Virus record (IMG/VR): IMGVR_UViG_3300028888_000049
Direction: 5' to 3' (one strand)
DNA: 64,000 nucleotides
Source of the DNA: a virus
Lineage: Duplodnaviria; Caudoviricetes
Shown: in pieces, positions 16,570-58,476 of the stretch
How the letters are laid out: the number at the start of each line of letters is the position of its first letter
How positions within the stretch are numbered: position 1 is the first letter of the stretch
Made by a program: the position numbers and the translations under genes
The notes under the pieces: model-generated
Seen by the model: only the letters and a program-made list of their open reading frames with translations
Told to the model about the DNA's origin: nothing
Databases searched by the model: none

Positions 16570-17760
16570 CTAAAAAACATCGTTAACGTCTAATATATTA
16601 TCCTTTTGTAATCTTATTAATAATTCGTTTAATCTTAAGTCAACATCTTCATCATATCTTATTTCTATTAACTCAATACTGTGAGACTTACAATATTCTC
16701 TCTTTATTTGATCTCTCTTCTGTGCATTTTCAAAAGCTTTCTGTGCTTTATCAATATTACCTTTATTATATGATATATAAAAATCAAAACCTTCTTTATA
16801 ATGTTGTCTACCTTGAAATTCAATACAAATGTTATAATCAGGCAAATAGAAATCAAAATGTAAAACTCTTTTATTTTTACATTCTTTAAAAGTATACTCA
16901 GCTTTATATTTTATACAATTAGTATCTAAAAATTTTGCTATTTTATCTTCATTATGACTAGAAGTACAAAATGGACATCCTTGTCCTCTAACATGATTTT
17001 GCGGAATTTGTTCGAATATCTTTCCACATTTATTACATTTAATTTTTACAGGTATTCTATTATTTATATATTTTACAAGTGAATAATCATATGTATCACC
17101 ATGTACTTTTTTAGCTTGGTTTAAGAATTTAATATCATTATCTTTAAAATTACCATTGCAATATGAACAACCTTGACCTCTAATATGATTATTTGGTGTT
17201 TGTTCAAATATTCTACCGCATTTATTACATTTTATTTTAACACACTTTTTGGCATCTTTATATTCAACTAAAGAATAATCATATTTATTACCATGAACAG
17301 CTTTAGCTTTTTCTATAAATTCTTCTAATGACAATGTCTTTTGTATAGCTCTTAATTTATATGAACAATCTCTGCAACCACTCCCAAATAGTAATGCATT
17401 TGGTGTACTATAAAAATATTTGTTACAAGTTTTACACCAGATTTTAACTTTAGTCTTATAATTTATATACTTGACTTCAGAATAATCATACTTATCGCCA
17501 TGAATTTGTATTAATCTACTTACAAATTCTTCAGTCGTTAATTTTGAATGTTCATGGCTTTTTTTACAATTACATAAAGTACAACCATGTCCGCATAAAT
17601 GTTTTACAGGTTTCTGATAAAAATATTTATTACAGTTTAAGCATTTAATTTTAATGGGAATATTTATACCTTTATATTCCACTTCTGAATAATCATACTT
17701 GTTACCATGTATCTTTTTAGCTTTTTCAATGAATTCTTCTGTTGTAAGTTTCTTACTCAT
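16570..17760 (-). mobile_element. Free-standing endonuclease: HG.KYDYS/CxxC zinc-finger repeats (DUF723-like) plus C-terminal Vsr/DUF559-like nuclease
   Basis: Four EFIEKAK..HG.KYDYS...CxxC...GCxxC repeats; FDFYLP..NICIEFQG.QHY nuclease core. Confidence 0.85.
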
Positions 17761-17761
17761 T

Positions 17762-20700
17762 TTAGCTCAAATCCTTACCTTCAAATTCATCTTGTTCAAT
17801 CAATTCATCAGCATGCTTTTTAAAGTAATAATACTTTCCTTTAAGTACATATAACTGATTTCTGTCAAGTCTTGTTGGAATTAATAAAATCAACTCTTCA
17901 AATGATACTGTACTCATCAACACCGGACTTAATTTCTGACATGATACAAATCGTGAACCATCACTCCAATCTAACTTCTTAATCTGTTTAATTAAAGCTT
18001 CTCGAGTGACACTCTTTCCACTAAACTTTTTCGGTTCAGCAATCTGTTCTTTCAATCTAGGCATATCTTCTAAGATTTCGTCTAAACTGAATACATATTT
18101 TGGTTCACAGTATAATGTTTGCATTTCACCAGTTTTAGGATTAATTACATCGGGTGTTCTTGTATATCTACCCGGCGTAGATACCTGAGCATCCGCTCCA
18201 ACAAATCCTAATTTATGTTGTAAATAATACCATATATTTTTATATTTATTACTTGGTACTGGCTTATCTATTCTTACAACACAGTGATATGATCTATGAC
18301 CACTCCATACAACTCTATATAATTTATCTTTAACTGGTTCTATTAAGTCTTCTTGCTCTTCTTTACTTAAATAATCACATTCAAATAAGAAGTTTTGACA
18401 TACTACTCCTGAATTAGTAGGATATGGACTTATATGATCTTTTAATGGATTTAACGATTGTAAGAAAGCTGGTTCTTCACTCTTATTATAACCTTCATCA
18501 TAATATGGTCCAAAAATTTCTTCAGCATCTAATAAATTCTTAGCAAAATTAATATATTCTTGTGTATTAATCTCTTCCCAAGTCAAAGAATCCAAATCAT
18601 CAATTAACTTCATATGTTGAGTAAAACCATTAATCTTAGATTCAGAATGTACGATTTCTGTTACTTCATTTCCATTCTCATCTAATACTGGTTTACCTTT
18701 TTCATCTTTAACAACTACCTCTTTAGGATTACGACTTATACTTATAAACTCTTCTGTTTCTGGATCATCGGGATATCCTACGATGAATGCTAATGAACGA
18801 CCTTCTAGCTTAGTCTTAGTCTTGGCATCACAAATCTCTCCTAATCCATGTCGTTTATAAATAACATAATCTCTAGGTAATGTATTCTCTAATAATGGTC
18901 TATGAGTAACTAAATTACATAAAATAGTACTTGTAGCCTTACCATACTTTTCATTTGAAAGATAAAAACCTTTAGACTTAACCTTTCCATTCGAAAATTT
19001 ACAATAATAATTATTCACGTTATTTTGTTGTAATAAGTCTATTTCGTCATATTCTAGTACTAATCTTGTTTCTTTAACCCAGTTTTCAGAGATAGGCATA
19101 AAGTCTACATCAGGTTGTCTTTCGATCATGATACCATCTGTATTTGTTTGTATGATATTAAATCCTGCGTTAAATAGTCTTTTTACGAGAATAAACAGGA
19201 GTAGTTGTCCATGAACGCAGATCGTTGAGTTAGACCATGTATCGTATAGAGGGTTGAATTTAGAGAGCATAGCGCCAATTGCTGAGTTTAATACTAGTTT
19301 AAGACCTAAGTTAAGGAGTGTATTTCCTGTGTGTTTGGCTTCAATTCTAGTATGATAAACTTGTTCGTATGAATCAGGGTGGGCGGCAGCACCTCGTGAC
19401 ATTAGGTTGTATTGTATCAGTAATGAGGGGTAAAGTGATGCAACATCCATATTCACGAGGTTAGTACTGCCATATTTAATAAGAGCTTGGTGTAAACCTC
19501 CAAATCCAAACTGGTATAAGTGTCCTTCGTCGTCTCCACCTAGATGTGTTTCGAATTTTTCTTTAATGTAGTCTGGATTTTGTTGGTTTTTGATATAAAA
19601 GTCTAATACGTCTGTTCCAGCTAATTCTTTATATGCAAGTTCTGGAATTGCGTAGTATTGTTTTTGACCATTTACGATTTTATATGTATTTTTGAGATTT
19701 GGTTTAGCATTTTCACCACATAATACTTTGGCTGCGAATGAAGCTGATTTTGTAATAAGTTGTTTAGCTTGCATTTTATATTCTACGATTAAGTTCCATT
19801 TAATATCGTAAGAATCTCTTGCAAATTCTCTCATTTTATATTTTGGATTTTCAGCTTTTTTCTCAAGATCACCTGGCTCTGGTAAGTATAATGATAAGGT
19901 ATTGTCCACGTCCATTGTACAATATCTTTCTACTTCTTCTCTTTGTTCTTGTGTTAGTGGTGTTTGAATATCGAATGGTACAGCTGAATCGTAGTTCTTT
20001 CTATTAAGTACTGACATAGTAAGTTTCTTAAGTGAGTTTCTACGAATATCAAATGGACCATGTAAAGATATATCCCATGATAAAAAGTTAGGAGGAGTTA
20101 CATCTTCAATGATTTCACCTTTTTCATTATAGTTTATACCATCTTGTGTTCTTACAATAGTCCATTTAGCAGCTAATTCTGGAAATTTATTAGGATTTTG
20201 ATCATAGATTAATGCATCAGAAAATTCTTTGACTGTAGGTGTACCTTGAACTGTATATGGATAGATCATAGCATGTTTAATTACAGCATCATCATATCCG
20301 CTATTATTAAATCCTATTAAGATTTTATTCTTTATCCATTTTCTTAATGTATCACCATCATTCCAACATACTACTTTATTCTTTCTATCTAATGTCATAG
20401 CTACAAATAGCCAATCATATTTGAATACTTCAATATCGTAAATCCATTCATATCTAACACCAGAATTATAATTTTCTCTTTTTATTTGTTTTTCTGATAG
20501 ATTAGATCTAATATATGGAATGTATGCATTATGATACCATTTAGAATACCATTCAGAAGATTCTCCATTTGGATGTTTTTCATCTCCATAGAAAGTCCAG
20601 CTTTTACGATCTCTATCTATATGATTAGCTTCATCTTCAGTAATTGTTTTAATTGGTATAATTTTTCCTGTACTATCTCTAAATTTAAATGTATTAATAA

Positions 20701-21523
20701 TTGTATCTAGATCTTCACTATAGACAGGTACAGTAGTAAATATCTTTTTTAATATATTTTTTCTTTCTAATTTAAGTTCGTCATCATCATTTTTACAACA
20801 ATCATCATCTGAACAATAAATTAATTCTACATCAGTATAACTATCATATACTTTACAATATTCAGTTAAATGTGTTGTAGGATTTAGTTTCATATTATAT
20901 CTAAACCCTTTAATAGCATTCATATCATATAATAAGCATATGGTTTCTAATTTTCTTATAAATTGTTTTGTATCACAATATGGAGATGTCTTAATATTTA
21001 CTGCAATATTAGTATTATTTAGAATTTGTGCAATGTCTGTATAATTATCATCTACTTCAGGTAATATAACATATGGAAATTTAAGATCTACTTTACCTGT
21101 AATTCTTGTATCAAAAACACTAAGACCTTTATTATCTTTATCAAAAAATAAACTTCTAACAGCTAAATTAGTAGATTTATAATAATCAGCATCAAAAGCT
21201 TCAAAAGCAGATTGTCCAATAAATGCAACTATAAGTTTACTAAAATCAATAGTACCTTTTTGTGCATAATATTCTAATATATTAAAGAATACATATCTAG
21301 CAAAATCAGTACCTCTAGCATCATTTACATACGTTACATGCGTTTCAGCAGATTTAAACTTACTCTGAAATACCCTATTTAAGTATGACATACCTTTAAC
21401 AGAATCAAAAATTTCTTTCTTATCATGTTCTAACGGTTTGTCAGCAATAAGAATTAATTTTGGTCCTAATGAACATTCATATTCTTTAATATCTCTTGGT
21501 ATAAACTTAACTTGATCTGCCAT
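17762..21523 (-). CDS. DNA polymerase (family B-type) with 3'-5' exonuclease, N-terminal UDG-like region and C-terminal primase-like domain
   Basis: YDIEVF, GFNN..YD and YC..DV exonuclease motifs; DVASLYPS, KLVLNSAIG and NTDG polymerase motifs; FECD, SGHRSYH and RYTRTP..NPKTG primase motifs. Confidence 0.9.
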   Translation of the reverse strand: MADQVKFIPRDIKEYECSLGPKLILIADKPLEHDKKEIFDSVKGMSYLNRVFQSKFKSAETHVTYVNDARGTDFARYVFFNILEYYAQKGTIDFSKLIVAFIGQSAFEAFDADYYKSTNLAVRSLFFDKDNKGLSVFDTRITGKVDLKFPYVILPEVDDNYTDIAQILNNTNIAVNIKTSPYCDTKQFIRKLETICLLYDMNAIKGFRYNMKLNPTTHLTEYCKVYDSYTDVELIYCSDDDCCKNDDDELKLERKNILKKIFTTVPVYSEDLDTIINTFKFRDSTGKIIPIKTITEDEANHIDRDRKSWTFYGDEKHPNGESSEWYSKWYHNAYIPYIRSNLSEKQIKRENYNSGVRYEWIYDIEVFKYDWLFVAMTLDRKNKVVCWNDGDTLRKWIKNKILIGFNNSGYDDAVIKHAMIYPYTVQGTPTVKEFSDALIYDQNPNKFPELAAKWTIVRTQDGINYNEKGEIIEDVTPPNFLSWDISLHGPFDIRRNSLKKLTMSVLNRKNYDSAVPFDIQTPLTQEQREEVERYCTMDVDNTLSLYLPEPGDLEKKAENPKYKMREFARDSYDIKWNLIVEYKMQAKQLITKSASFAAKVLCGENAKPNLKNTYKIVNGQKQYYAIPELAYKELAGTDVLDFYIKNQQNPDYIKEKFETHLGGDDEGHLYQFGFGGLHQALIKYGSTNLVNMDVASLYPSLLIQYNLMSRGAAAHPDSYEQVYHTRIEAKHTGNTLLNLGLKLVLNSAIGAMLSKFNPLYDTWSNSTICVHGQLLLFILVKRLFNAGFNIIQTNTDGIMIERQPDVDFMPISENWVKETRLVLEYDEIDLLQQNNVNNYYCKFSNGKVKSKGFYLSNEKYGKATSTILCNLVTHRPLLENTLPRDYVIYKRHGLGEICDAKTKTKLEGRSLAFIVGYPDDPETEEFISISRNPKEVVVKDEKGKPVLDENGNEVTEIVHSESKINGFTQHMKLIDDLDSLTWEEINTQEYINFAKNLLDAEEIFGPYYDEGYNKSEEPAFLQSLNPLKDHISPYPTNSGVVCQNFLFECDYLSKEEQEDLIEPVKDKLYRVVWSGHRSYHCVVRIDKPVPSNKYKNIWYYLQHKLGFVGADAQVSTPGRYTRTPDVINPKTGEMQTLYCEPKYVFSLDEILEDMPRLKEQIAEPKKFSGKSVTREALIKQIKKLDWSDGSRFVSCQKLSPVLMSTVSFEELILLIPTRLDRNQLYVLKGKYYYFKKHADELIEQDEFEGKDLS

Positions 21524-21959: not shown

Positions 21960-23066
21960 TTATTCACCTTCTTTATATTCACCTGTTATTGGATCAAACT
22001 CTTCTTCCTCAGATTCAGTATCTTCACTAGATGTATCTTCAAAAGATTTCATAACAAAATCTTTAACTTTTGCTGTAAAATCTTCTAATAATTCGGGTTG
22101 ACTCTTTAACCATAACAAAGCTTTGTCTTTACCTTGTGCTACGTTTTCACCATTATATTTAAACCAAGCACCAGATTTTTCTACTAATCCGAATTTAACA
22201 GCATAATCTAATACTTCTTCTTCTTTAGAAATACCTTTACCAAAACGAATAATAAAATTAGCTGTCTTAAATGGCGGAGCAACTTTATTCTTAATCACTT
22301 TAACTTCAGTCTCACGCGCTATTGCCATAGCATCATCACCTTTTCCTTCTTTGATTTGAGACTTACCAGCAATACGCATACGAACAGAAGAATAAAATTG
22401 CAAAGCCATTCCACCTGTTGTCGTTTCTGGATTACCAAACATAACACCAATTTTCATACGGATTTGGTTAACAAACAAACATAAGCAATTAGCTTCATTC
22501 GCCATCGCAGCAATTTTCTTTAATCCAGAAGACATTAAACGAGCTTGAGTGCCAATGAAGTTGTCACCAACCTCTCCATTCAATTCAGCTTTAGTTCTTG
22601 CTGCTGTTACACTATCAAAAATGATTACATCAACAAGTTTATTAGTTAATAATTCAACAATCATATTGAAACCGTCTTCTATGCAAGAAGGCTGTGAAAA
22701 AATAAGATTATTAAGATCAACACCTAAAGCTTTAGCATAGTTTGCATCGAAGGCGTTTTCGAAATCCAAGTAACAGACCGATAATCCTTTTTTCTGAGCT
22801 TCACTGCAAACCTGTAAACAAACTGTTGATTTACCACTTGATTCTGGTCCATAAATTTCACAGATACGTCCAAGTGGTAAACCTCCTACACCTAATGCTA
22901 AATCTAAAGAAATACTACCAGTTGAAACAACATCGACTTTTTTAATTTCGGTATTATTAAAAGTCATAGCTGATCCATCGCCAAATTTACTATTTAAAAG
23001 CTTAAGTGCAGCTTGAATCTTATTATTTCCTGCAGTTTCTTCTACTTTTTCAGCTTTTTTAGCCAT
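21960..23066 (-). CDS. recA: RecA recombinase (bacterial type)
   Basis: STGSISLDLALGVGGLPLGRICEIYGPESSGKST, NQIRMKIGVMFGNPETTTGGMALQFYSSVR, KNKVAPPF. Confidence 0.97.
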   Translation of the reverse strand: MAKKAEKVEETAGNNKIQAALKLLNSKFGDGSAMTFNNTEIKKVDVVSTGSISLDLALGVGGLPLGRICEIYGPESSGKSTVCLQVCSEAQKKGLSVCYLDFENAFDANYAKALGVDLNNLIFSQPSCIEDGFNMIVELLTNKLVDVIIFDSVTAARTKAELNGEVGDNFIGTQARLMSSGLKKIAAMANEANCLCLFVNQIRMKIGVMFGNPETTTGGMALQFYSSVRMRIAGKSQIKEGKGDDAMAIARETEVKVIKNKVAPPFKTANFIIRFGKGISKEEEVLDYAVKFGLVEKSGAWFKYNGENVAQGKDKALLWLKSQPELLEDFTAKVKDFVMKSFEDTSSEDTESEEEEFDPITGEYKEGE

Positions 23067-23116: not shown

Positions 23117-24229
23117 CTAATTTTGGGAAAAAAGTTCCATTTCTAATCTTTTTTCGATATTTTCATCATATTTTATTTCAACAAGCTTAATATTATGCTC
23201 TTTACAATAATCACGCTTAATTTTATCGTGTTTTTGTTGTATTTTAAATTTTAATATAGCTTTATCATCATCTTTTAATTTACCTTTAAAATACCATGGA
23301 GAATAATGTTGAGCACCTTGAAATTCAATACAAATATTATAAGTAGGTAAATAAAAATCAAATGGTAATGACCTTTTATCTTTACAATCTTTAAATCTTT
23401 TTTCGGAAATATATTCTACATTATGATTTTTCAAATATTCTGATATAAATTCTTCCTTTTTACTTCTAGTACATTTTGGGCAACCAAATCCATTTAAATG
23501 ATTACCAACTTTTTGCCAAAAATTATTACCACATTTATTACAATGAATAAAAATATAACCTTCTTTATTATCAGGGTAAATTGATTTTGAATAATCATAT
23601 TTATTACCATGTATTTTTTTGGCTTTTTCTATAAATTCATTTATATTACTTCTTAGTTTAAGTCTTGCACTATTTCTAGCACATTTTGGACAACCTCCTC
23701 CACGAAGCAATTCACTAGGAGTAGTATAAAAGAATTCTTTACATGTATTACACCAAACTTTACCTTTTATTTTTGCTCCTTTATATTCAAATTCAGTAAA
23801 GTCATATTTATCTCCATGAATTAATTTAACTTCTTTTATGAATTGTTCTTTTGTTTTTCTATTTGGATGTATTTTTTCAGGAGTACAATTAGGACATTCT
23901 TTTTGACCCTGATAAAATAAATACGCTTTTATTTTAAATTCTGTACCACAATTATTACATTTTATATCAATTAAATCATTTAACGTATTAAATTTTATTT
24001 TACTATAATCATATTTATCACCATAACGTTTTTTACATTTTTTAATAAATCTACTTAAACTCATATATAAATGAATATCGTTATTAACTCTTGGTATATT
24101 ATACTCTGATAAGTTTTGTCTAATAACTTTTGCACTCGTTTTAAATAATTCAGCTATATTAGATATTGGCAATTTCTGTACAATATATAAATCATATAAT
24201 TGTTCTTTGTCAAGTATTCTTTTACGCAT
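23117..24229 (-). mobile_element. Free-standing endonuclease (HTH, DUF723-like repeats, Vsr/DUF559-like nuclease); paralogue of 16570-17760
   Basis: HG.KYD repeats, GCPKC, LPFDFYLP.YNICIEFQG.QHY. Confidence 0.85.
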
Positions 24230-34054: not shown

Positions 34055-34196
34055 ATTTTTTCTCCTTTTTAAAAATTTATTATGAAAAAAAATATTTGTA
34101 AAGCAAAAAATTTTTTTAAAATACTGTTTTTAATACTGTTCTATAAAAATAGTTATTACTAATTTTTACTTCATTAACAATAAAGAGTTTCAATAA
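34055..34196. promoter_or_regulatory. Divergent control region: leftward GCTTTACA promoter and rightward GTTCTA element
   Basis: tgtaaagc at 34097-34104; gttcta at 34138-34143; major strand switch of gene orientation. Confidence 0.7.
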
Positions 34197-36885: not shown

Positions 36886-39369
36886 ATGGAAACGTTACCT
36901 GAAGATATAGAACGTAAACTAGAAAACTTACCAGTTGTTTCATTTGATGCTAGTGATGAATTACCTCGAGTATTAGCTACTCAAGATTTTATTGATATAT
37001 TCAATTATTACAAAGAACACTTTTTACCAGATGTCCTTAAATCACAACCAGAAATATATCAAAAAGTAAGTCTATATCTAACATTAACCGGTCAAGATAC
37101 AGCATTTGCTAACCAAACAGATCAAGTTCTCTTTAGAAGACCTGTACCAACTATGGAAGAATTTCTAAATGATGACTTCTATCATGGCAAACTAACTGCT
37201 ACAATGTATCCATACTGGAAAGAACAGCTATGTAATATCTTCAGAGAAAATTCACCAGTACGAAAAGTAATCTTTGGAGGATCAATAGGATCGGGAAAAA
37301 GCACCATTGCTCGTAAAGCTATCGTATACTCTTTATACAGAGCATTATGTCTAAGATATCCTAGAGCTGCATTTAACGTCGATGAAGATACTACTCTTGC
37401 TAACTTCATTGTATCAGTTACTATTAAACAAGTATTTGATACTAACTTAATGCCATTCGTAAGTCTATTAAATAATATGCCTTGCTTTCAATCAGTACGT
37501 CATATCACTTCTTTCGATGGTTTTAATTTAGACGATCCTTACTGTCCAATACCATTCTGGGTTGAAAAATCTTCAGGTACTATATTCTTCCCAAATAACT
37601 TCATCTTATCAGCAGGATCACAAGTACAACATACTATTGGTTACTCTATCATTAACTCTTTCTGCTTTACTGAAAACACTAAAGTATATACAAACAAAGG
37701 TATCTTAACATTCAAAGAATTAGAAAACAGATTTAAAAACAATGAATCCTTTACAACAAAATCAATAACAAATACTAAAGAAATTATAGACTCTAACATA
37801 ACTAATGTACAAATAACAGGATATAAACAAGACTTTATAAAAATATATATCACAGACACAGATTATATTGAATGCACTCCCGAACATCCCTTTGTTATAG
37901 CTAATCCAAAAGAAAACGATCCATTCTTAATATACGAAAACGGAATACCATACAAATATACTAAAGACTTAACAGAAAAAGATGAACTAGAAGAAGGAAA
38001 TTCATCTATAAAAATTAAAAAGATCGAAAAAGTACATTATGATGAACCAAAACCAGTCTATGACTTAACAGTAGATAGTAAATACCATAATTTCCTCATC
38101 AATCGTGGTCTTAATATTTTTACCCACAATTGTGATGAAATTAATGAGCGTGGCGTTGAAACGGCTATTAATTTCCTTAACTCAATTGATAACCGCTTCA
38201 GTTCGAGATTCCAAGGCAGTCCGTTTGTCTTCCAAGCGGTTGTCTCTTCGGCTCGAACCACAAACAGTCCTATTGGTGAGTATATTAAGCATTTACCCAA
38301 GAATGATCCTAGTATTGAGATCTTGTCTCCTTGTTTGTGGGAAGTAAAGCCTGACCCGAACTTTATTGGAGATGGCACAACGTTTCCTGTTCTCGTTGGC
38401 AATGGTTCTATACCTTCTAGTATTATTACAGATGAAGCAACTTTAAAGGCTATAGATGAAGGTAAGTATGTCGAGCCAACAGGTTGTAGTTTAATTCACG
38501 TGCCAACAGTTTATAGATCAAAGTTCGAATTACAATTAGATCAGTCTATACAAGATATTGCTGGTATGACTACATCTGATAATAATATGGTATTTAGAGA
38601 TACGTCTAGATTAGAAGATACTGCATTATTACCAGAGTTATATATGGAAGCTAATATACGTGATAATATTAATTTATTAGATTTATTACCAGTAGATAGA
38701 ATATTTGAGAAAGGTCTTAATAATAGATGGTATTTTAAGAGAGCTCCTAATGCACCTAGGTTCTGTCATGTCGACTTAGGTGGATCAGGAGAACGAAATT
38801 GTGATACTGCATTATGTATTGGTCATAAAGAGTGGAAGAATAATACTGTAACTAACATGAGAGATACTATATATGTAGTAGATATGTTAATATTTGTTAC
38901 AGCACCAATTAAAGTAGATTTAAAAGCTATTGAAAACTTTCTTATAGGTCTTGTTAAAGTATATAATGCACCTATACATACTGTTTCTTTTGACCAATGG
39001 CAATCTCTTGTTATGACACAAAATCTAGAAGTATCTGGATGTTTTACTGAGGTTAAAAAAGTATCAGTAGATCTTAAACCAGAACCATATATGAATGCTG
39101 CTAGATTAATGGAATTAGGACAAGTTAAAATAGGCGCATGTCCAAAACTTAAAAAAGAATTAGAAGCTCTTATTTTTGAAAAAGGTAGAGTAACAAGAAC
39201 TACCGAACTTAAAGATGGCGCTGACGTATTAACTGGATTTATTTATGATGCTCAAATGTGTACTGAAGCCACTCCAATAGATAGATATAAAAACGCTGGA
39301 GCAGTTAAATTCGATAAAGGATATAAACTCTATATTAATAAAGATGAATACTTAACAGACTTGTTCTAA
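36886..39369 (+). CDS. terL: Terminase large subunit containing an intein
   Basis: Walker A GGSIGSGKS, Walker B SFCDE (rejoined after splicing), VSS motif III, nuclease HVDLG, SFDQWQS, KDGAD. Confidence 0.9.
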   Translation: METLPEDIERKLENLPVVSFDASDELPRVLATQDFIDIFNYYKEHFLPDVLKSQPEIYQKVSLYLTLTGQDTAFANQTDQVLFRRPVPTMEEFLNDDFYHGKLTATMYPYWKEQLCNIFRENSPVRKVIFGGSIGSGKSTIARKAIVYSLYRALCLRYPRAAFNVDEDTTLANFIVSVTIKQVFDTNLMPFVSLLNNMPCFQSVRHITSFDGFNLDDPYCPIPFWVEKSSGTIFFPNNFILSAGSQVQHTIGYSIINSFCFTENTKVYTNKGILTFKELENRFKNNESFTTKSITNTKEIIDSNITNVQITGYKQDFIKIYITDTDYIECTPEHPFVIANPKENDPFLIYENGIPYKYTKDLTEKDELEEGNSSIKIKKIEKVHYDEPKPVYDLTVDSKYHNFLINRGLNIFTHNCDEINERGVETAINFLNSIDNRFSSRFQGSPFVFQAVVSSARTTNSPIGEYIKHLPKNDPSIEILSPCLWEVKPDPNFIGDGTTFPVLVGNGSIPSSIITDEATLKAIDEGKYVEPTGCSLIHVPTVYRSKFELQLDQSIQDIAGMTTSDNNMVFRDTSRLEDTALLPELYMEANIRDNINLLDLLPVDRIFEKGLNNRWYFKRAPNAPRFCHVDLGGSGERNCDTALCIGHKEWKNNTVTNMRDTIYVVDMLIFVTAPIKVDLKAIENFLIGLVKVYNAPIHTVSFDQWQSLVMTQNLEVSGCFTEVKKVSVDLKPEPYMNAARLMELGQVKIGACPKLKKELEALIFEKGRVTRTTELKDGADVLTGFIYDAQMCTEATPIDRYKNAGAVKFDKGYKLYINKDEYLTDLF
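37663..38130 (+). mobile_element. 156 aa mini-intein in TerL Walker B
   Basis: Starts CFTENTKV, block B ECTPEHPF, block F VYDLTV, ends IFTHN followed by extein Cys; no endonuclease domain. Confidence 0.93.
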
Positions 39370-40472
39370 GAAGCTATCAAACCAAATGTAAAACTCTTCT
39401 AATGTCCAAAACTCATACCAGTTAAGATTATTCTTCTCTGCACACATTCTCTTTTCTGGATCAGTTATAGTCCACACCTCAATACAACTCTCAAAAAAGG
39501 GATCATCTTCGTGACTCTTCCACTCTTCTAATAATTGACGATGATCTTCTCTCTTTTCATCATAAGGACCAAGTATTACATCACCAGACTTTCCATGACT
39601 CATAAAGCCTTGATATTCAATAAAAATATCATATGTTAGTAAATAAAAATCACATAAGTAAGGATAACGATCATCAACATGCTCATATTCTACAGCAATT
39701 CCGCACTTAAAAAACAATTATATATCTCTACTTCAGCATTAGAACGAACTTTAGTACCATCTAAACATTCTTTAGCTTTTACATAAGAACCAAATGTCAT
39801 CGTACCATTTTCTTTTTTTGTCTTATATATTTTAGCCATTCTTTTAGAATCTCTTTCTTTATCTTTAAAAATAGCTTTAAATTCATCTGTTTCTGGATAC
39901 GAATAGACTTTATACTTTTTAAATATACCATCTTTACGAGCTTGAGTTATTTTATCTTTTTCTTCTTGTGATTTATTATTCCAAGTTTCACTACACTTTT
40001 TAGAGTTACAATAATTTTTATCTCCATATCTTTCAAGTTTAGTTTGTTGCATTTTTTCTAATAATTTTTTACTTGCTCCACCATTACCACCGTATAATTC
40101 TACTGTTTTAGCTCTACCATTTAATTTAGGATCCTTTGAAGACCAATTATGTTTTACTCCATGTCGTTGTAACATAGTATTTTCATATTTTTCTTTTGCT
40201 TTTTTCTTATCTTCATCAGACATATTATGTTTTGCTTCAGATAACATTTTAGAATATTCTTCTGTCTTTTTAAAAGCACTATAACATTTCATACAACAAA
40301 AACTATATTTCCAATTTTTCTTTACTTTTTGATAAAATGATTTTCCACAAGTATGACATACTGCATTCGGTTTACGATTATCATAATACTCTTTCTGACA
40401 TTCTTTACAGCAAAACTTTTTAGTATTTTTTATAGTTTTACCACAGTTTAAACACGTTCTTGTAACTTTCAT
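39352..40472 (-). mobile_element. Endonuclease gene split into two overlapping ORFs (39690-40472 zinc-finger/DNA-binding; 39352-39717 nuclease)
   Basis: CxxC/FCC..C fingers; CDFYL..YDIFIEYQG..H nuclease core in the -1 frame; T TTT TTA at 39708-39714. Confidence 0.8.
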
Positions 40473-40609
40473 AAGATTTCACTCCTTTTTATTCTTTCTA
40501 TATACAGTGGCTATTCTCATCCGTACACGATTATTCTTCTGTTTCTAATAACAAAAAAGAGACCATATTTCAGATCTCTTTGTAATTGACTGAGAATAGC
40601 TACCTCTTG

Positions 40610-41161
40610 TCAGTCAATTTCATCGCCCGCCAAGAAGTAGTTGTAACTGAAGCTTGCACTGATAGTTACTGGATCAGAACTAGAAGCACTGATAGTCGGG
40701 AAAGAAATCTCGTTAGGGAATACATCATACAGACGAATATCATAACGAGTCATACCTTCCGGTTTTGGCTCATATACATCAGGATTCAGAAGAGCAATAT
40801 TAACAGTCGCTGTATATTCATCTAACAGAGAAATAGTACCATTTTTGAAGTTATGGTAGGTATTGCACCAAACTTTCAGAGCTTCGGTAATCTCGGAGTC
40901 CCAAACCTCTGTAAATTCAACGGCCCAATCCCCTGCACGCGTCTGCTTGCCGGCGTAGCGCCTTTCGAAGCCACCCCATTGAACTACGGTCTTGTCGCCG
41001 GTGAATTTAGGAAAGCCGTAAGATTGGCAGCGTAGTTCGAGGTCTTTTGTTTTGATAAGTTGTGTAAGAGGAGAGCCAGGTTTAAAGCTGATGACCCAGG
41101 TAGATACGAACATCTTCAAAGGGTCTTTTAAATTTTGTACACTAGCTAAAGTATGTAACAT
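40610..41161 (-). CDS. Tail tube protein (T4 gp19-like)
   Basis: LELRCQS..FP, RRYAGKQT..GDWAVEFTE, LYDVFPNEIS, FSYNY. Confidence 0.75.
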   Translation of the reverse strand: MLHTLASVQNLKDPLKMFVSTWVISFKPGSPLTQLIKTKDLELRCQSYGFPKFTGDKTVVQWGGFERRYAGKQTRAGDWAVEFTEVWDSEITEALKVWCNTYHNFKNGTISLLDEYTATVNIALLNPDVYEPKPEGMTRYDIRLYDVFPNEISFPTISASSSDPVTISASFSYNYFLAGDEID

Positions 41162-44460: not shown

Positions 44461-45930
44461 TTGAGTACTATATGGAGATATAGAATTATGTCTAGTAAAT
44501 ATGATTGTATTTCAGATGAAATTTTAATAGAATTATATATTAACCAAAATTTACCAATATCAGTAGTAGCCAAAAAATTAAATGGCAGTAAAACACAAAT
44601 TAGACTCTTACTTATAAAAAGAGGTATTATAAAATCAAAAGAATTACGTCATCAACAATATACTAATACTTTAAATGAATTTTATGCAAATCGTACAGAA
44701 GAGCAATATCTTCATAAAAGTAGAGCTTGTAAAGATAGATGGAATAATTCTACAGAAGAAGAAAAAATAGAATGGATGAAGCCATTAAATAAAGTAAATG
44801 CTCATAGATCTCCTGAACATGAAGCTGCATTAATAAAATCATATAAAAATTTTTTAAAAAATGAATCAAAAGAAGATAGAGCTATACGTTTAGAAAATAT
44901 AAGAATTAGTACTACTAAAGCTATTAAAAATATGTCTCCTGAAACAAAAGCAAAAGCATCTGAAAAAAGAAAAAACACTTGGAATAATAAAACTGAAGAC
45001 GAAAAACGAAAAATTAAAGAAAAAAGACAAAAAACTATGTCTGCAAAATCATTAGAAGAAAAATCAAGTTATATAGAAAAAGGAAGACTTACAAAACTAA
45101 AAAACGGAACGCTTTTTACATCTAACGATGAAAATATATTTATAAACTATTTAAATGAATTAGGCTATAAAACTAGTAAATTTTATTTAAAAGAACATAT
45201 AAATACGACTACAAAATCCGAAATAGATATCTATATAGATGAACAAAAACTCGGGATTGAAATTAATGGAATATACTTTCATAGTATAAATGGAAAAAAT
45301 CATCGTGACAAATATTATCATTATAATAAAACAGAAGATGCAAGATTAAATAATTTCAGTTTAATTCACTTATGGGAAGATTGGATACATACAAATTTAG
45401 AAACATGTAAAAATATATTATTTAATAGACTAGATTTGTCTCATACAAAAACATTAGACACTCTTAATTATATACAAATAAATCAGAATGTATTTGAAGA
45501 TTTAAGAAAAAATTTTACACTAGATTATTCAAAAACTTATGCTAATATGTATAAAGTAATGAATAATACAGAATGTTATGCCATTCTAGGCTTGAATATT
45601 AAAGACAGAATCATAGAATTTAATTTATTCGAAAATCCTTTATACAAAATATCAAACTTAATACAAAGTACTATTAAATTCATAATAAATACTTTTAATC
45701 CAAATAAAATATATACATCATTAATGAGAGATATCTATATTGCTGATAATTATCTTAATAATAGCTTCGTCCTAGTAAATTATACAGAGCCAAATAGATT
45801 TTTAATAAAAGGCAATTACCAAAGATTTTATACAGATATCTCTGTTTCTGAATTAAAAAATCAAGAAAATACAAATAATATATTTGAATGTTATGGATCT
45901 GGATATATAAAATTAGAATATAAAGAATAG
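44461..45930 (+). mobile_element. Hef-like homing endonuclease (HTH, helical repeats, Vsr-like nuclease); likely start ATG 44488
   Basis: EIDIYI...LGIEINGIYFHS, LIHLWEDW, C-terminal ECYGSG. Confidence 0.75.
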
Positions 45931-46013: not shown

Positions 46014-48818
46014 ATGTCAGATAAATTAAAGAAAGATCAAGCTTCAGGTAGATATTTTTTATATGAATCTACTGAATTTAATGTAAAACCAGTAATTTCT
46101 AAAGATTTAAAAGAATCTCTAAAGATTTCAAACGGAAAAGCCGGCACTCTTATCGTAAGAAACGTACCAGTCACAATTCTTAATAGAGAAAATATGAACG
46201 GGCGTATCTATACAACACAAGTTTTGGAAGAAGCTATTGCTGAATGTAAGCGTCTTAACAAATTTGCTGATAAGATGCTTTTATCGAAGCCGGATGAACA
46301 TCCGGAAGATTCGTTCATCCCTCCTTCAAAAGCATCACATGCTGTTATTAATTGTTATATTAAAAAGAATGTACCGATCGTAGTTGAAGGTAAAAAAGAA
46401 CGTCATGATGTTCTTTTCCAAGACTGGGAAATCTTTAATACAGCAAATGGTAAAGATATGCGTGCATTAGTAGAAGCTGGTGTATCATTTGGTGTTTCTA
46501 TTCGTGGTTTAGGCGATCTAGAAGGCAAATACGTAAAAAATTATAGTTTACTTGGAACTGATCTTGTAGGGAACCCAAGTTCTTCTACGTTTTCTGGTAT
46601 GCCCGTTGCTGAATCTGTTGTTGAATCTGTAAATGAAGATAAGTCTAAAAAGCCATTAAAAGAAGAGTTTGTTGTTTCTAGTTCTTCAACAACTGTTATG
46701 AAAGATATAGAACAAGCTTCTAAATTAGCTATGGAAATTGATGAACTTAATTATGGTACTGTTGTAAAGACATCTACAAAAGTTGATGATGAAACAGATC
46801 CTAAGACTGGTGTTTCTACAAGTTTAGTTACGTTTGAAGCTGAAACAGAAGATAAAGCAACTGATTTAGATACAGCTTTAATGTTAGCTAAAAGAGCTAT
46901 TTTAAATGGTAAAGTTGATATTGATTCTGTTACTATTGAAAACGTTAAAGAAGATCAACCGAAAGAATCTGCTGAAAATAATGACGCTTCTGTATTAAAA
47001 GAAGAAGAAAAAGATCCAATGTATTTAGCTTTGAAGAAAAGTAATTATTATCGTTTTAACACACCTGAAGAATATATGAAGTTTATAAATGATAATGTTA
47101 AATATCTTGATAATGGTTATTCATTACCAGAAGCTGAAGAAATTTTTGCTGAGTATACTGATGGTAAAATTAGTCCTGAATTAGCTTGTCATAAACTTGA
47201 AGGATTTGTTGGTAATATTATAAATAAAACTTTTAATAAAGATATTCCAGCATTAAATGAAGATGAGAACAATGATGATGCTGATGATACTGAGCGTTAT
47301 GGAGTATGTGGTTGGTGCGGTGAAAAATTGCCATTATCTGATTTAAAGAAAGAAAAAGATTTAGGATATGTATGCAATCATTGTGCTAAAGGTCTTGCAT
47401 CTCGTGAAGGTCCGCTTAATTTTGAAGATGAATATGTACCTGAATCTAAAATGAATAAAATGAGTACTGTAAAAGAAGCTAAAGAAGAAAAAGAAGAAGA
47501 TCCAAATACAGGTAAGAAATTTATCTTAAAAACTCCCCAAGGTTTTGTCGCTATGGATGGTAATGCATTGGTATTTAAACAAAATCCTAAAGAAGCATTA
47601 CATTTTATTGTTGGCAAAGAAGAAACGGGATTAGTACATCTTTCTAAAGTACAAGAAATTTTAGATACTATGGGTGTCTATGATGTAGAAAAGTACTATA
47701 AAAAAGATATCACAGATATTAGTGCTCCGGAAGAAGGTAACGGAATTGCTCCTAAGGGTGATTCTGAATTTGCTCCAAAAGAAGAATCTAGTGAAGAATT
47801 AACAGAAGATAATGGAAGCAATACAAGATTTTCTGCACAAGTTGCTTATGATAAAGGTAATGGTAATCTTGAGACAAATACTGTTCCTGTTTCTGGTGTT
47901 GAATTAGATAGTATTCTTGCCGAAGTAGGTAATTTATATGATATGAAATCGCAAAAAGCAGATGGTACTGTATCTATTAAAGTTACTGATACACAAACTG
48001 GACAAGTTTACCAATATAATAAACAAAATAATTCATTAGATCCTATACAAAGTGCTGATACAAATATGGCAGATGTTCAACAAGAACCACAACTCGATGC
48101 TCCTATTCAAGAAGCTAATGGTGAAATTGAACAAAAAGCTAATGAATTAAAAGTTGACTTAGATAAAGATCATTCAGTTACAAAGAAGTTTGATACTGTA
48201 GCTCAAGCTAGTATTGCAAAAGCTGGTATGGAACAAGGTAAATTGAATGGTGACGTCATGCTCAGTGAAGAAGATCAAAAATACGAAGATGCTCCTGATT
48301 ATGGTGAAGAAAATGTTGAATTTGGTTGGTATGCATTAAGTCCTAATACTGATGCTCAGGGTAGACCTGATTTAATTGGACCATTTGAAAGTGAAGAAGA
48401 AGCAAATAATGCTCTTGCTGAAGTAATTGATATGGTTGAAATCTTTGAAGTTACTCCAGATGGTATTCACCAAGGAAATGATATGGCATTAGCAGCAGAG
48501 TCTAATTTAGATGAAAAGATTTTCTCTAATCCTACGAACCCTTCTGATGAATTTGTATCTGTTCCATTAAAAGATAGTGATAATTTAAAATTTAGTTTAG
48601 ACAATATTGATTGGGATATTGATAGTGTTGTTAATAAACTTTATGATGGTGAATTTGTAGATATTGACAATTTACCAGATCATTTAGAAGTTGAATTAAC
48701 AGAAGATGAATTCAAAAATGTTGCTAATGTTGAAGAATTAATGAACGTTATCAAAAATAAAGCTTCAGAACAAATCGGTATTAAAATTAATAATGCCGTT
48801 TTAGATAGAATTGCTTAA
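46014..48818 (+). CDS. Prohead protease (T4 gp21-like) fused to a long acidic core/scaffold region
   Basis: NRENMNGRIY, DEHP, SHAV, GVSIRGLG, DLVGNPS; acidic C-terminal ~730 aa. Confidence 0.85.
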   Translation: MSDKLKKDQASGRYFLYESTEFNVKPVISKDLKESLKISNGKAGTLIVRNVPVTILNRENMNGRIYTTQVLEEAIAECKRLNKFADKMLLSKPDEHPEDSFIPPSKASHAVINCYIKKNVPIVVEGKKERHDVLFQDWEIFNTANGKDMRALVEAGVSFGVSIRGLGDLEGKYVKNYSLLGTDLVGNPSSSTFSGMPVAESVVESVNEDKSKKPLKEEFVVSSSSTTVMKDIEQASKLAMEIDELNYGTVVKTSTKVDDETDPKTGVSTSLVTFEAETEDKATDLDTALMLAKRAILNGKVDIDSVTIENVKEDQPKESAENNDASVLKEEEKDPMYLALKKSNYYRFNTPEEYMKFINDNVKYLDNGYSLPEAEEIFAEYTDGKISPELACHKLEGFVGNIINKTFNKDIPALNEDENNDDADDTERYGVCGWCGEKLPLSDLKKEKDLGYVCNHCAKGLASREGPLNFEDEYVPESKMNKMSTVKEAKEEKEEDPNTGKKFILKTPQGFVAMDGNALVFKQNPKEALHFIVGKEETGLVHLSKVQEILDTMGVYDVEKYYKKDITDISAPEEGNGIAPKGDSEFAPKEESSEELTEDNGSNTRFSAQVAYDKGNGNLETNTVPVSGVELDSILAEVGNLYDMKSQKADGTVSIKVTDTQTGQVYQYNKQNNSLDPIQSADTNMADVQQEPQLDAPIQEANGEIEQKANELKVDLDKDHSVTKKFDTVAQASIAKAGMEQGKLNGDVMLSEEDQKYEDAPDYGEENVEFGWYALSPNTDAQGRPDLIGPFESEEEANNALAEVIDMVEIFEVTPDGIHQGNDMALAAESNLDEKIFSNPTNPSDEFVSVPLKDSDNLKFSLDNIDWDIDSVVNKLYDGEFVDIDNLPDHLEVELTEDEFKNVANVEELMNVIKNKASEQIGIKINNAVLDRIA

Positions 48819-53813: not shown

Positions 53814-56800
53814 CTAGAATGAAAACTTAGTAACACATTTTACTAATTTAATATCTTCATTCAAGTTTTCTTCTAACGCAATAGCTATTACATTATCATT
53901 AAATGCATTTTTAACAGTACCAACACCTGCTATATCAGATAATTTAATTTTATCAAATTTACGAACCGCTCCTTTGACTTTTACGTTAACTTTACCAGCA
54001 AGAGCTATTGGTAAACCATGTGCTTCACTATTCAAGATAATAGCAGGTTTACTAGAAATAACAGCATTTACTTCAGCTGTAGCTTTTGTAATTTCTTTAC
54101 TACCACCGAAACAAACTAATGTACCTTCTTCATAATCTTCGTCAGCTTCATATAACTCAGCCAAGTCAGCAGTTCCAACTTCAATACCGTCAACAAACGT
54201 TTTAATACCGTTAATGGTTTCATCACCTGTAGTATGTACTAAGTTTGCACCACCACCGCCAGTGCCTCCAGTAATATCATCAAGCTGTCCTTGAATATCT
54301 GATGTTACATTAGAAAGATATCCTAATTGTGTACTTGTCACACCTGAAACAGCAACTTTACCAGAACCATTACTAATTAATGCTCTATTAGCAGTTAAGT
54401 TATTTGTAGTAATAGTAGTCGCAGCACCAGTAATATTGTTTTGTTTATTATTTGTTAATGATGTAATATTACTTTTATTTGTGTTAATTTGACTAACTAA
54501 TGTAGATGTAATACCAGAATTTAAAGCGGCTAATTGTGCAGCAGTCATAGGAGTTTCATTAACTTGATATTCAGGAATCCATCCAGCTTTACCGTCAGTT
54601 CCCCAAACACCTGTATACTTAAATCTCCATGTACCATCTAGTGTATCGCCAGTATAACCAGAAGCATCTTGTACAACCAAATAGTCATTAACTGTAGGTG
54701 TCCTACTTCCAGCATAATCTACAGGATAACTAGAAGCTGCAGTAGGAACAGAAGACCAATCTGCCCAATTTCCTCTAAAGTTAGCTGTATTTGTTTGAAT
54801 TGTAGAATTAACAAATGCTTTATCAGCTAATTGATTAGATGCGCTTGCTTGAGTAGGAATCTTACTATTAATTGTCGTAATATTACTTGTATTTGTGTCT
54901 GTATGTGCATCTACCTCATTAATAGCAGCGACTAAATTACCTTTAGCATCAGTTGTTAACGATGTAAGTGTACCAATATGATTTGTATTTGTATCAGTAT
55001 GACTATCTACTTCATTAATAGCACTCTGTAAAGATGTCTTACTATCAGTTGTTAAATTACTTAATGTACCAATTTGAGTTTGAATAGAACTTGTAACACC
55101 ATGTACATATCCTAACTCTGTAGATGTCGTATCACTAACAGCAATCTTTCCTGAATTATTACTGATAACAGCTCTATTTGTTGTTAAATTAGAAGTTTTA
55201 ATCGTTGATACTGCACCAGCAAGATTAGCTTGTACATACTTAGTAGTAGCTACCTTATAACTATTATCATTTGTAGCTAAATCACATTTATCAAATACAG
55301 CATAAGGATTATTGTTATTATAAACTAAATGTAAACCAGATCTTGTACCTGCCGGAATAGCTTGAGCAACACCTTCTTCATCTTCTGTATAAAATGATGT
55401 CGTATTATCTGCATATACATACAAAACTAATTCATTATTATTAGTAGCTATAGTACTCTCAACACTAGAAATAGGTGTATAACTAATTCTACTATTTAAA
55501 TCACTAGGATCAGATATAGTCGTTTTAGCTTTCATTAACATAGCAGAAGGTGTGATATCTGCGGTACTATATCTTACTGTTAAACCAGAACCAGTAGCTC
55601 CAGTAGTAACATTAGAAGTTCCAGCAGTAGTACCAGAAGGAGCATAGTTTGCAGAAACGATATTTGAAGTAACTACTAATGATGTAACAGCACCAGTCTC
55701 TTCATTAACACCTTGTACCATACACGTTACTTCACCACCAGTATTGGCAACTAAAACTGTATCACCAATTGCATACATACTTCCTGCATTACCAATACCA
55801 TTACCTGTTAATACTACTTTATAAGTCTTATCTGCATCAGACATAATAGGACGACTAAATGTCTTAACACCAACAACAGTCTCAGCATTCGTCTTATGTA
55901 AAAACGTATTATTAACATCATACGTCTTCTGCTTAGTATTAATATCTGTCTCTACATTATTAGCAACATCATTTAAAATCTCCCAAACTTGTCTTACTGT
56001 CGCTAATTGATACCGTTGTGTAGGTAATATATCTGTAGCAAATGGAGACGTAATAACTTCACTATTTCTAATACGCCACGGTAAATACTCACCACCATTA
56101 TATAACTCTACATAATCTGCACTACTAGGAATTACACCCTTCAAATTAATCAAATTATTATATAATCTACCATCAACTTCATCTTCTATTCGTGTCTCTA
56201 CATAATTACGTACAGCATTAGCAGTAGGATACTTACTAGCATCTATCGTTGTATCAGTTCCTGGTATAGTAGTAATCTTATTAGTAGTCTCTTCTAACCT
56301 ATATCCAGCATTAACAATTCTTCCATAAATAGCATTACCATCAACATTACTCATATTCTTCAAGGCTAACGCTGCATCACCCTTAGAAGCAGAACTTAAT
56401 TGAGCTACATCTAAATTACTCGTATCAGCATATGCTAAATTCTTTCCTGCATGTCCTGTCGAAGTCGCTAAATTTACAGTACTAACATTACTCATATCAG
56501 CATACGCTAAATTCTTACCACCATGACCTGTAGACGTAGCTAAATTAACTGTATTAACATTACTCATGTTAACTAATGCTCTACGATTAACCTCACTATC
56601 AACATAACTAGTCTTAGCTAAACCATATGTATTAAAAACCTTAACAATATTACTAGCTATCGCTGACGTACTCTCTAACTCTTCCAAATTACTAAGATCT
56701 GCATACGCCAAATTCTTATCACCAAGGAAACCACGATGCTCAGCCAAAGCCTCAGTAGAAACATTCAGAAAATCTGCACGTGCCATTGGTATGCCTCCAC

Positions 56801-56975
56801 GATTGATTGAATTGTGGAGGCGTATCGTGGCATTGCTATCGGTACCATACTGAATACCGTTATACTTATAACCTAAGTCTACAACAATTTCGCCTTGAAC
56901 ACCTAAAAAGTTAAGATTTGCTTGAGTATCGCCTTTCCTAAAGGACACAGCTCGAGTTTCTATAATGGAAGCCAT
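53814..56975 (-). CDS. Tail fibre with Mtd-like N-terminus, internal repeats and C-terminal autocleaved chaperone-like domain
   Basis: RKGDT...FLGVQGEIVVD...LHNS..GGIPMAR; KNLAYAD.SN repeats; ADLAELYE...IALAGKV. Confidence 0.8.
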   Translation of the reverse strand: MASIIETRAVSFRKGDTQANLNFLGVQGEIVVDLGYKYNGIQYGTDSNATIRLHNSINRGGIPMARADFLNVSTEALAEHRGFLGDKNLAYADLSNLEELESTSAIASNIVKVFNTYGLAKTSYVDSEVNRRALVNMSNVNTVNLATSTGHGGKNLAYADMSNVSTVNLATSTGHAGKNLAYADTSNLDVAQLSSASKGDAALALKNMSNVDGNAIYGRIVNAGYRLEETTNKITTIPGTDTTIDASKYPTANAVRNYVETRIEDEVDGRLYNNLINLKGVIPSSADYVELYNGGEYLPWRIRNSEVITSPFATDILPTQRYQLATVRQVWEILNDVANNVETDINTKQKTYDVNNTFLHKTNAETVVGVKTFSRPIMSDADKTYKVVLTGNGIGNAGSMYAIGDTVLVANTGGEVTCMVQGVNEETGAVTSLVVTSNIVSANYAPSGTTAGTSNVTTGATGSGLTVRYSTADITPSAMLMKAKTTISDPSDLNSRISYTPISSVESTIATNNNELVLYVYADNTTSFYTEDEEGVAQAIPAGTRSGLHLVYNNNNPYAVFDKCDLATNDNSYKVATTKYVQANLAGAVSTIKTSNLTTNRAVISNNSGKIAVSDTTSTELGYVHGVTSSIQTQIGTLSNLTTDSKTSLQSAINEVDSHTDTNTNHIGTLTSLTTDAKGNLVAAINEVDAHTDTNTSNITTINSKIPTQASASNQLADKAFVNSTIQTNTANFRGNWADWSSVPTAASSYPVDYAGSRTPTVNDYLVVQDASGYTGDTLDGTWRFKYTGVWGTDGKAGWIPEYQVNETPMTAAQLAALNSGITSTLVSQINTNKSNITSLTNNKQNNITGAATTITTNNLTANRALISNGSGKVAVSGVTSTQLGYLSNVTSDIQGQLDDITGGTGGGGANLVHTTGDETINGIKTFVDGIEVGTADLAELYEADEDYEEGTLVCFGGSKEITKATAEVNAVISSKPAIILNSEAHGLPIALAGKVNVKVKGAVRKFDKIKLSDIAGVGTVKNAFNDNVIAIALEENLNEDIKLVKCVTKFSF

Positions 56976-57129: not shown

Positions 57130-58389
57130 TCATCGTCTCTTTTTGTGTTTGAATTCTAATCTGCCTGGTTTATAGGTGTCATCTGGTTTTTCAAATCTAA
57201 AGACAGATTTTTCGCCGTTATTCCACCATTTTTTGCCTTTATTTTGATAACTTGTGATTTGTACAAAGCCTTCTGGAATTGGATCGTCTTTTTTGAGAAT
57301 TATGTTTTCTTTACCGTTTGTATAGATCGTTTTTCCGTACATTGGATTATTTTCGCCTTTAATCTTTTCAGAGGCAAATTTCTTCATTTCTTCTGTTTGT
57401 GCGTAGTTTTTAACACCATAATGTTCTAGATTATATTGTTCAATTTTCTGTAATTTTTGTTGTTTTTTATCTTCTGACAAAGGAAGAGCACCTTTTATCC
57501 AGCCTTCTGGTATAATGTCAGATTCACTAAAATAGCATTGAGTTATACCGTTATTGTATACTTTAGTATTTTTGTTTTTTGGAGATTTATGACGATTATC
57601 ATCTGATTTTACAGGTAATTGCCCTTTTATCCAATCATCACCAGGACATTCTTTTTGAAGTTTTTGTTCAATTCCATTATTCCACCAGTATTTACCATAA
57701 GCAGGATTATTTTCGCCTTTAAGTTCTTGTATAGTCATACCTTGTTTAAAGCCTTCTGGTATTTGATCATCCTTTTTTATTATAATGTTTGTAATTCCAT
57801 CAGTATACCAGTTTGTATTATACATTGGGTTATTTTCACCTTTTAATTTATCTCTAAATTCTTCAGATACAGGTAATTTTCCTAAATGCCATCCATCTCC
57901 GGGACATTCTGAACTTATACATTGTTCTATTCCATCAGTCCACCAATTACCACGACTTTTACAAGTACATCCTCTGTAATATCCTTCTGGTATTGTATCT
58001 TCTTCTTTTAAAAATAAATTATCTATCCCATTTGTATACCAATGTCTTCCTTCAGCAGGTTTTATTCCGTTATTATATTGAGAGAAATCTTGACTACCTC
58101 CTTGTGCTATATTATATCCTTTATCTTTTTCATTAGAGTGATACACTTCTGTTATAAAATACTTTTCTTGTTTTTCTATCTCATCTTTGAATTTTGTTTG
58201 TAATATAACAATATGCTGAATATTGTTCCAACCATATTTTTGTATTGCACTCCATAAATACGGCTGTGCTTTATAATTTACACCAGTATATCCCCAACGA
58301 ACTTTTGGCTTTTGTGATGTTATTCCTACATATACCTTATTATTCGGAAAGATATGTACGTATAAGCTGTAGATCTTCTCTTTTTTCAT
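57130..58389 (-). mobile_element. GIY-YIG homing endonuclease with seven W(Y/W)(T/N)NG-type repeats and three KGENNP repeats
   Basis: LYVH...KVYVGITS..PKVRW, E.YFI, GYNI..GG. Confidence 0.88.
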
Positions 58390-58476
58390 ATAATCAATTT
58401 CCTTCTATTAATTCTTATGTTATATAGAAGTATTTAAAGTTTTCTAATTTGTAAACTTTTTTAGTTTATAGTTCTG

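Follow-up and report, generated by a model that had tools for sequence, protein, structure and literature searches.

Mirror-image composition flips in conserved phage genes beside free-standing endonuclease genes: a candidate footprint of recurrent break and repair

The locus and its genes

The window—the whole 64,000-nucleotide stretch of DNA analysed here—is part of a 263-kb phage genome of 29% GC from gut-type metagenomes, and contig L006 carries the same sequence, one base apart. It encodes a DNA polymerase with a C-terminal primase-like domain, RecA, the terminase large subunit TerL, a tail tube protein, a head protease, and further tail proteins, with several free-standing endonuclease genes interspersed among these conserved genes. 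More than 200 terL relatives were found, on contigs of up to 285 kb, and the genomes used for comparison are six near-complete relatives (G001–G004, G006, and G007) plus a 79-kb piece (G005). The terL locus is organised as follows:

36886–39369, + strand: terL (827 aa), an open reading frame whose homologues match phage terminases and which bears the composition switch
37663–38130, + strand: mini-intein of 156 aa (TerL residues 260–415; PF14890 and its boundaries), lacking an endonuclease and lying just before Walker B
36900–38147: left flank of the switch, silent C 0.22–0.41 and silent G 0–0.04 (silent-site composition)
38148–38403: overlap core, in which silent C (0.32) and G (0.54) are both high (changepoint fits)
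38404–38800: right flank, in which C is low (0.09) and G raised (0.18) (silent-site composition)

C is found at 81 of 228 C/T sites left of 38403 and at 8 of 93 to its right (likelihood ratio 27.8); G is found at 3 of 140 A/G sites left of 38148 and at 28 of 110 to its right (likelihood ratio 33.6). Silent G starts at around 38148 and silent C ends at around 38403, in agreement with the skew switch that the first-pass annotation had described at the intein end and Walker B. The right flank is cut short by the left flank of a second site, in the tail tube gene.

Composition flips along the genome

Synonymous sites were scored on the top strand throughout, with correction for codon family and coding strand, and an identical 263-kb contig allowed the scan to be extended from the window to 89 kb; the capsid and iteron regions lie outside these 89 kb. 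Five flips in the window exceeded the permutation 99% maximum of 4.1, with z values of 7.7 (19050), 6.9 (38200), 4.9 (40400), 10.5 (56800), and 4.4 (58350). The null is a codon shuffle, which ignores gene-to-gene differences in codon bias; an artefact of this kind is argued against by the flips falling within genes and by their one-way polarity, there being four C-to-G switches and no G-to-C switch in the window when both flanks are required. Beyond terL, the fitted sites are:

40446–41006: overlap core of the tail tube site (gene 40610–41161, − strand; changepoint fits)
19019–19025: sharp flip in the DNA polymerase gene (17762–21523, − strand; scan and changepoint fits)
56793–56874: strongest flip, in a tail fibre gene (53814–56975, − strand; scan and changepoint fits)
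58351–58696: flip at the 3′ end of a 774-aa tail gene (silent-site composition and changepoint fits)
46202–46607: weak head protease flip beside an endonuclease gene (44461–45930), below the genome-wide threshold (changepoint fits)
22095–22815: weak and poorly located recA flip beside an endonuclease gene (23117–24229), below the threshold (changepoint fits)

Two more flips came from the widened scan, each beside a GIY-YIG gene: a significant one in nrdD and a weaker one at around 75300. In every case, the top strand is rich in C and A to the left and in G and T to the right, and several of the genes affected are essential. This polarity is independent of gene direction, since terL lies on the + strand and the other flipped genes on the − strand; recurrence of one polarity whichever strand codes, previously noted for the tube, polymerase, and fibre sites (~40450–41000, ~19020, and ~56800), is thereby confirmed and extended to ~58500. 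Flanks can be extreme: that on the left of the fibre site (55800–56790) is C-rich and free of G, while those on the right are G-rich and C-free to ~59900 in the 774-aa gene, G-rich to ~20100 in the polymerase gene—where the overlap core spans no more than a few bases—and G/T-rich across intergenic DNA to ~42500 at the tube site.

Relative to expectation, four-fold sites show A 1.13, C 1.47, G 0.40, and T 0.87 in left flanks and A 0.79, C 0.65, G 2.37, and T 1.16 in right flanks. In the pooled profile, C reaches 0.30 and G 0.37 at the centre, and background (~0.1) is regained by about 2 kb; the local decay described earlier is thus upheld, over a range slightly longer than the 1 kb then proposed.

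At nine of nine fitted sites, the onset of G lies to the left of the end of C, with overlaps of 6 to ~940 bp (255 bp in terL). Several single changepoint estimates are loose and the fitting windows were chosen by the analyst; the uniform sign is nevertheless informative, because a single shared changepoint would yield either sign equally often. The overlap interval is the GC-rich core already recognised from the sequence, with four-fold C at 3.1 and G at 4.0 times expectation. A G onset to the left of the C end is what would be expected if both strands were resynthesised across a gap.

The terminase intein and the question of a foreign block

Each flip had been placed beside an intein or an endonuclease. 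For the terminase intein as the cause, this association fails: homing of the intein would place it between the two flanks, yet it lies wholly within the C-rich left flank, and the flip is not centred on the insertion point. Nor does the footprint track intein presence, as nine distinct relatives carry an intein at the same site (HN/CDEI) with no comparable flip (L001, L002, L003/L004, L021, L022/L023, L024, L025, L036, and L037), L022/L023 and L036 showing at most a faint trend.

The intein, contiguous in the window, is split in the ~95% identical relatives L005 and L100, whose halves are separated by a 338-aa GIY-YIG-like gene (L005:1371–5306) or by a 48-aa relic (L100:1024–4086). The layout in L005 is that of the fractured-gene arrangement (PMC2677866). 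The window has matches to the sequence on either side of the insert, suggesting that its intein was re-fused once the nested endonuclease gene had been lost. At 38094–38128, the window and L005 differ in the C-terminal segment of the intein within otherwise 95% identical DNA, to all appearances a recombination patch at the splice junction.

That patch, as evidence of exchange at the junction, is what speaks for the reading of the flips as recombinant blocks from a donor of higher GC. Such blocks, or selection on codons or RNA structure, are nonetheless highly improbable as the explanation: a donor block cannot produce mirror-image flanks, the polarity is blind to the coding strand, and folding is unremarkable in three of four cores (terL, tube, and polymerase; z −1.3 to +0.5). 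Furthermore, the protein closest in the core, P0034 (90.7% identity there), is also closest in the flanks, so that the asymmetry between strands, as first suspected, does not reduce to a GC-rich import.

Substitutions and lineage history

An outgroup contig, L101, retains the gene order at 74%–82% nucleotide identity and has neither the Walker B intein nor the flip. Among all terL relatives, only L005 and L100 share the flip, which was therefore gained in this lineage. The differences from L101 are transitions: in the core, A>G outnumbers G>A by 42 to 4 and T>C outnumbers C>T by 28 to 6; in the left flank, T>C outnumbers C>T by 22 to 3, with only 3 A>G; and in the right flank, A>G outnumbers the reverse by 16 to 4, all in a comparison in which the window is also somewhat GC-richer overall.

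Among the ~95% relatives, total silent divergence does not rise at the flip sites. T/C differences correspond to 1.9–2.3 times the background gain rate on the left and 0.41–0.47 times on the right, and A/G differences to 0.34–0.38 times on the left and 1.7 times on the right; these relative rates assume equilibrium, and the three unrooted haplotypes cannot polarise substitutions. The A/T transversion clock at the sites runs at about 0.6–0.9 of background. In contrast to the close strains, transversion divergence from L101 is higher in the cores (36/79) than elsewhere (31/113; p = 0.014 in one post hoc test), while core transitions among close strains reach only ~0.3 of the value predicted from GC content, mostly in the tube core and with two or three haplotypes per site. 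Fast long-term change of the cores combined with homogenisation, as homing sweeps would give, fits both observations.

These rates bear on the nature of the scar. Background rates lie close to the mean of the two flanks, with the disfavoured side below background, and at face value this fits a fork direction that is fixed near each site. Added mutation fits only if sweeps have shortened local ancestry, given that the opposite-strand gain (0.34–0.47 of background) falls below the A/T clock (0.6–0.9); in view of the outgroup comparison, such shortening can mimic low close-strain rates, which are accordingly no refutation of added mutagenesis. The rate data allow both fixed fork direction and sweep-masked added mutation.

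A third possibility, put forward in this analysis itself, is a bias of fixation at the same hot spots: heteroduplex formed by an invading 3′ end would tolerate G:T mismatches, which resolve towards the donor, and reject A:C, so that the left side would gain T>C and G>A and the right side A>G and C>T. A G:T mismatch is more stable than A:C. The proposal predicts the polarity, the 1–2 kb range, the lack of a rise in total divergence, and rates that are both raised and lowered, and it would work even with rare breaks; a tie between correlated GC and TA skew and gene-conversion tracts has been reported for GRINS (PMC8256042). It also predicts a neutral core, yet C and G are both enriched in the cores at nine of nine sites, and no supporting data on a bias by mismatch type were found in the two RecA studies consulted. 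On this evidence, we regard biased conversion as quite unlikely.

Co-location with endonuclease genes

Three endonuclease genes adjoin the significant flips of the window:

39352–40472, − strand: free-standing endonuclease gene between terL and the tube gene (phrog_3339 homing endonuclease, E 1.9e-5)
16570–17760, − strand: endonuclease gene 1.3 kb from the polymerase flip (phrog_559, phrog_9084)
57130–58389, − strand: GIY-YIG-type homing endonuclease gene between the fibre and 774-aa gene flips (phrog_314, phrog_5123)

The first encodes 373 aa in the L006 and L007 assemblies and, in the window, 260 and 121 aa owing to one deleted G at 39703—either an assembly error or a recent inactivation. 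A search of solved structures with the endonuclease domain gave no match. In nrdD, the gene is in two pieces of 584 and 144 aa with a gap of 90 bp, followed by the GIY-YIG gene (L131:12679–14957); the gap is possibly an intron remnant.

Each of the seven flips in the 89 kb has an endonuclease gene no more than 1270 bp away, the mean distance being 557 bp (circular-shift p = 0.006), a count in which two pairs of flips share one gene each and two flips (nrdD and ~75300) come from DNA added after the window analysis. It is thus the endonuclease half of the earlier association that holds. Of the homologous positions in relatives, 41 are more than 5 kb away from any endonuclease gene, and all of these stay below z 3.5; a G002 tube/protease position adjoining such a gene reaches z 6, and the polymerase, fibre, and 774-aa genes of the relatives have neither endonuclease nor flip. 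Endonucleases are therefore probably behind the flips of this genome.

An adjacent endonuclease gene is not sufficient, however, because L101 carries the same terL–tube gene and no flip; among 35 endonuclease-like genes in relatives, just 23% have a z above 3.5 nearby, against 6% at random, and many of these adjoin the capsid gene. Nor is one necessary: the iteron-like tracts of G002, G003, G006, and G007, a site at 116.9 kb in G002, and, weakly, the G004 capsid region flip with none detected nearby. Endonuclease genes also favour essential genes in any case (PMC10055350).

Possible priming points without nuclease cleavage

The exceptions invite a different account, in which flips mark much-used points of replication priming—R-loops at strong late promoters, primase hairpins, or genome ends—where fork direction is fixed for ~2 kb and leading/lagging bias accumulates, endonuclease genes lying nearby through a shared preference for essential, recombinogenic genes. 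The C-to-G polarity on the top strand is that of an origin. It is shared, over 2–5 kb, by AT-rich repeat tracts in G002, G003, G006, and G007 and by the capsid promoter region in six relatives; the flip of that region is weak in G004, where no endonuclease gene lies.

For this phage family, the tracts are candidate origins or genome ends. In G003 (52.7–54.5 kb; L041:12700–14500) and G002 (L059:600–1700), a conserved AT-rich repeat tract is followed by a short GC-rich palindrome and by extremely G/T-rich DNA, and similar repeat tracts lie at ~61 kb in G006 and ~169 kb in G007.

Within the window, the tube and fibre flips fall 200–400 bp downstream of a late-promoter-like GTTCTA motif. This motif, followed by an AT-rich stretch, lies 7–70 bp upstream of about 12 genes (for example at 34138, 36150, 41214, 45950, 48827, and 57016), and is a likely late promoter. 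The fibre flip also carries the strongest DNA hairpin in the 89 kb, at 56782–56831, exactly on the flip, with a ~22-bp stem that includes G:T pairs on the top strand; it could be a quasi-palindrome made by repair or a priming signal.

Against priming, the sites of the window fall within coding sequence, lack AT-rich or iteron tracts, and share no significant motif; the one AT tract near a window flip is ~600 bp from the tube site. An intergenic promoter motif is absent at the terL, polymerase, and 58500 sites, and most promoters of this kind are not accompanied by a flip. The sites are lineage-specific and track endonuclease presence at the polymerase, fibre, and 774-aa genes, and processive forks should skew tens of kilobases rather than 2 kb. 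No skew along the replichore was seen, composition returning to background by ~2 kb, but the iteron tracts of the family itself fade in 2–5 kb. Priming alone thus appears rather unlikely, while retaining serious weight.

A search for motifs shared across the flip sites returned nothing significant. One 10-mer, ATCAATCGTG, has only three copies in the 89 kb, each at a flip and always encoding I-N-R in frame (38098–38107, +; 56798–56807, −; and in nrdD, 2.6 kb left of the window); with a shuffle p of ~0.07 and no copy in L005 terL, it is a mere lead for a cutting or priming motif.

The first-pass annotation had also named a primase-fused polymerase as a possible source. Primase-like motifs are present at the polymerase C-terminus (18100–18430, − strand; phrog_2597, E 3e-4), and the domain is fused to the polymerase in G001–G005 and a separate ~320-aa protein in G006 and G007. 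Since G001–G005 keep the domain and have no polymerase, fibre, or terL flip, it cannot explain which lineages bear flips; it may still be the enzyme involved.

Proposed break and repair by neighbouring endonucleases

Taken together, we think it somewhat better than an even prospect that the flips are recurrent break-and-repair hot spots at the cut sites of neighbouring free-standing homing endonucleases. The strand asymmetry is of the type expected from break repair or replication initiation, which supports that element of the original proposal, while the terminase intein is discarded as its source. For terL, the candidate cutters are the endonuclease encoded at 39352–40472 and the GIY-YIG-like gene within the split intein of L005.

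Under this model, the endonuclease would cut the conserved gene repeatedly at the overlap core. The top-strand 3′ end on the left would then prime rightward synthesis and the bottom-strand 3′ end on the right would prime leftward synthesis, the new or displaced strand gaining A>G and C>T over 1–2 kb, whether through wobble misinsertion at G:T or through deamination in the single-stranded state. On the top strand, this would give G/T-rich DNA on the right and C/A-rich DNA on the left; where ends were trimmed back, both strands would be remade, leaving a GC-rich overlap. Wobble errors at G:T and deamination of extruded single-stranded DNA would both yield A>G and C>T. Damage to a resected 3′ tail predicts C>T and A>G on the top strand to the left, the opposite polarity, and is excluded, as the left shows a gain of T>C and reduced A>G.

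The free-standing endonucleases of T4 cut hundreds to thousands of base pairs away, in adjacent conserved genes (PMC2988022); T4 breaks prime synthesis, and short displacement synthesis with no helicase covers ~2.5 kb (PMC3016281). Yeast repair synthesis is reported to be 1000-fold more mutagenic than replication (10.1101/2023.08.09.552703).

The common factor of all flips is best put as repeated outward extension of 3′ ends from one place; the scar may come from mutagenesis, fixed fork direction, or biased conversion.

Relation to known systems

The arrangement recalls the intronless homing of T4 Seg and Mob endonucleases, with its co-conversion and marker exclusion, in which endonuclease genes likewise adjoin conserved genes (nrdD, recA/uvsX, and structural genes; Edgell et al. 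2010, PMC2988022). The candidate sites of the phage match it in lying 0.1–1.3 kb off, inside the neighbouring gene. On the other hand, cutting in the phage is putative, and the passages of the T4 account considered here mention no compositional footprint. A study of diversity gradients at the edges of mobile introns in yeast mitochondria proposes that endonuclease cutting and repair leaves a mutational footprint in host genes (Repar and Warnecke 2017, PMC5378118). That study considers SNP density only, and the words skew, spectrum, and transition are absent from it; in the phage, by contrast, there is no rise in polymorphism, and what stands out is a mirror image in base composition.

At human meiotic break hot spots, mutation is likewise symmetric in the centre and strand-asymmetric over flanks of ~2 kb, and the classes involved are A>G and C>N (Hinch et al. 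2023, PMC7615360). There, the exposed strand is the resected one (top, left of the break), deamination of which would, by our reasoning, give a G/T-rich left side, opposite to the phage, in which, moreover, the effect has sufficed to recode silent sites. GRINS (2021, PMC8256042) share local, correlated GC and TA skew that is strongest at third positions, a link to gene conversion, and proposed A>G and C>T changes. The phage flips show the same excess of G over C and T over A at third positions; GRINS, however, are duplicated tracts of more than 500 bp (>80% identity) within a gene cluster, whereas the phage sites are centred, mirror-symmetric, and beside endonucleases, and appear to be single-copy, with no second copy of 26.9–49.4 kb within the window. 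The skew switch at replication origins, including T4 R-loop origins and recombination-dependent replication (Kreuzer and Brister 2010, PMC3016281), has the same polarity, which is also seen at the iteron-like tract of the family, but the phage flips range over ~2 kb only, are many, lie inside genes, and are lineage-specific.

The flips resemble footprints of break asymmetry, mutagenic homing, and GRINS, and have the defining features of none of them. They are a real and non-trivial variant of break-associated strand asymmetry, the cause of which we infer. A literature search of incomplete coverage found no description of such flips in phages.

Significance

More generally, though we hold this only tentatively and at somewhat short of even confidence, a keto skew may arise on the new strand for 1–2 kb wherever a 3′ end is repeatedly extended, be it at an endonuclease break, an origin, or a genome end, with the overlap measuring end trimming. 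Sequence alone would then reveal, to within 100–300 bp and in phages and archaea alike, where uncharacterised phage homing endonucleases cut and where synthesis is primed. Should this hold, one genome would be a record of the places its selfish nucleases cut and of the reach of repair synthesis, and would yield testable target predictions for enzymes of unmapped specificity. The finding also touches on two further questions: whether homing causes mutation in its own right (PMC5378118) and how GRINS-type skew arises. A caution follows for jumbo phages, in which a local switch of GC skew is not necessarily an origin and such patches can resemble foreign DNA.
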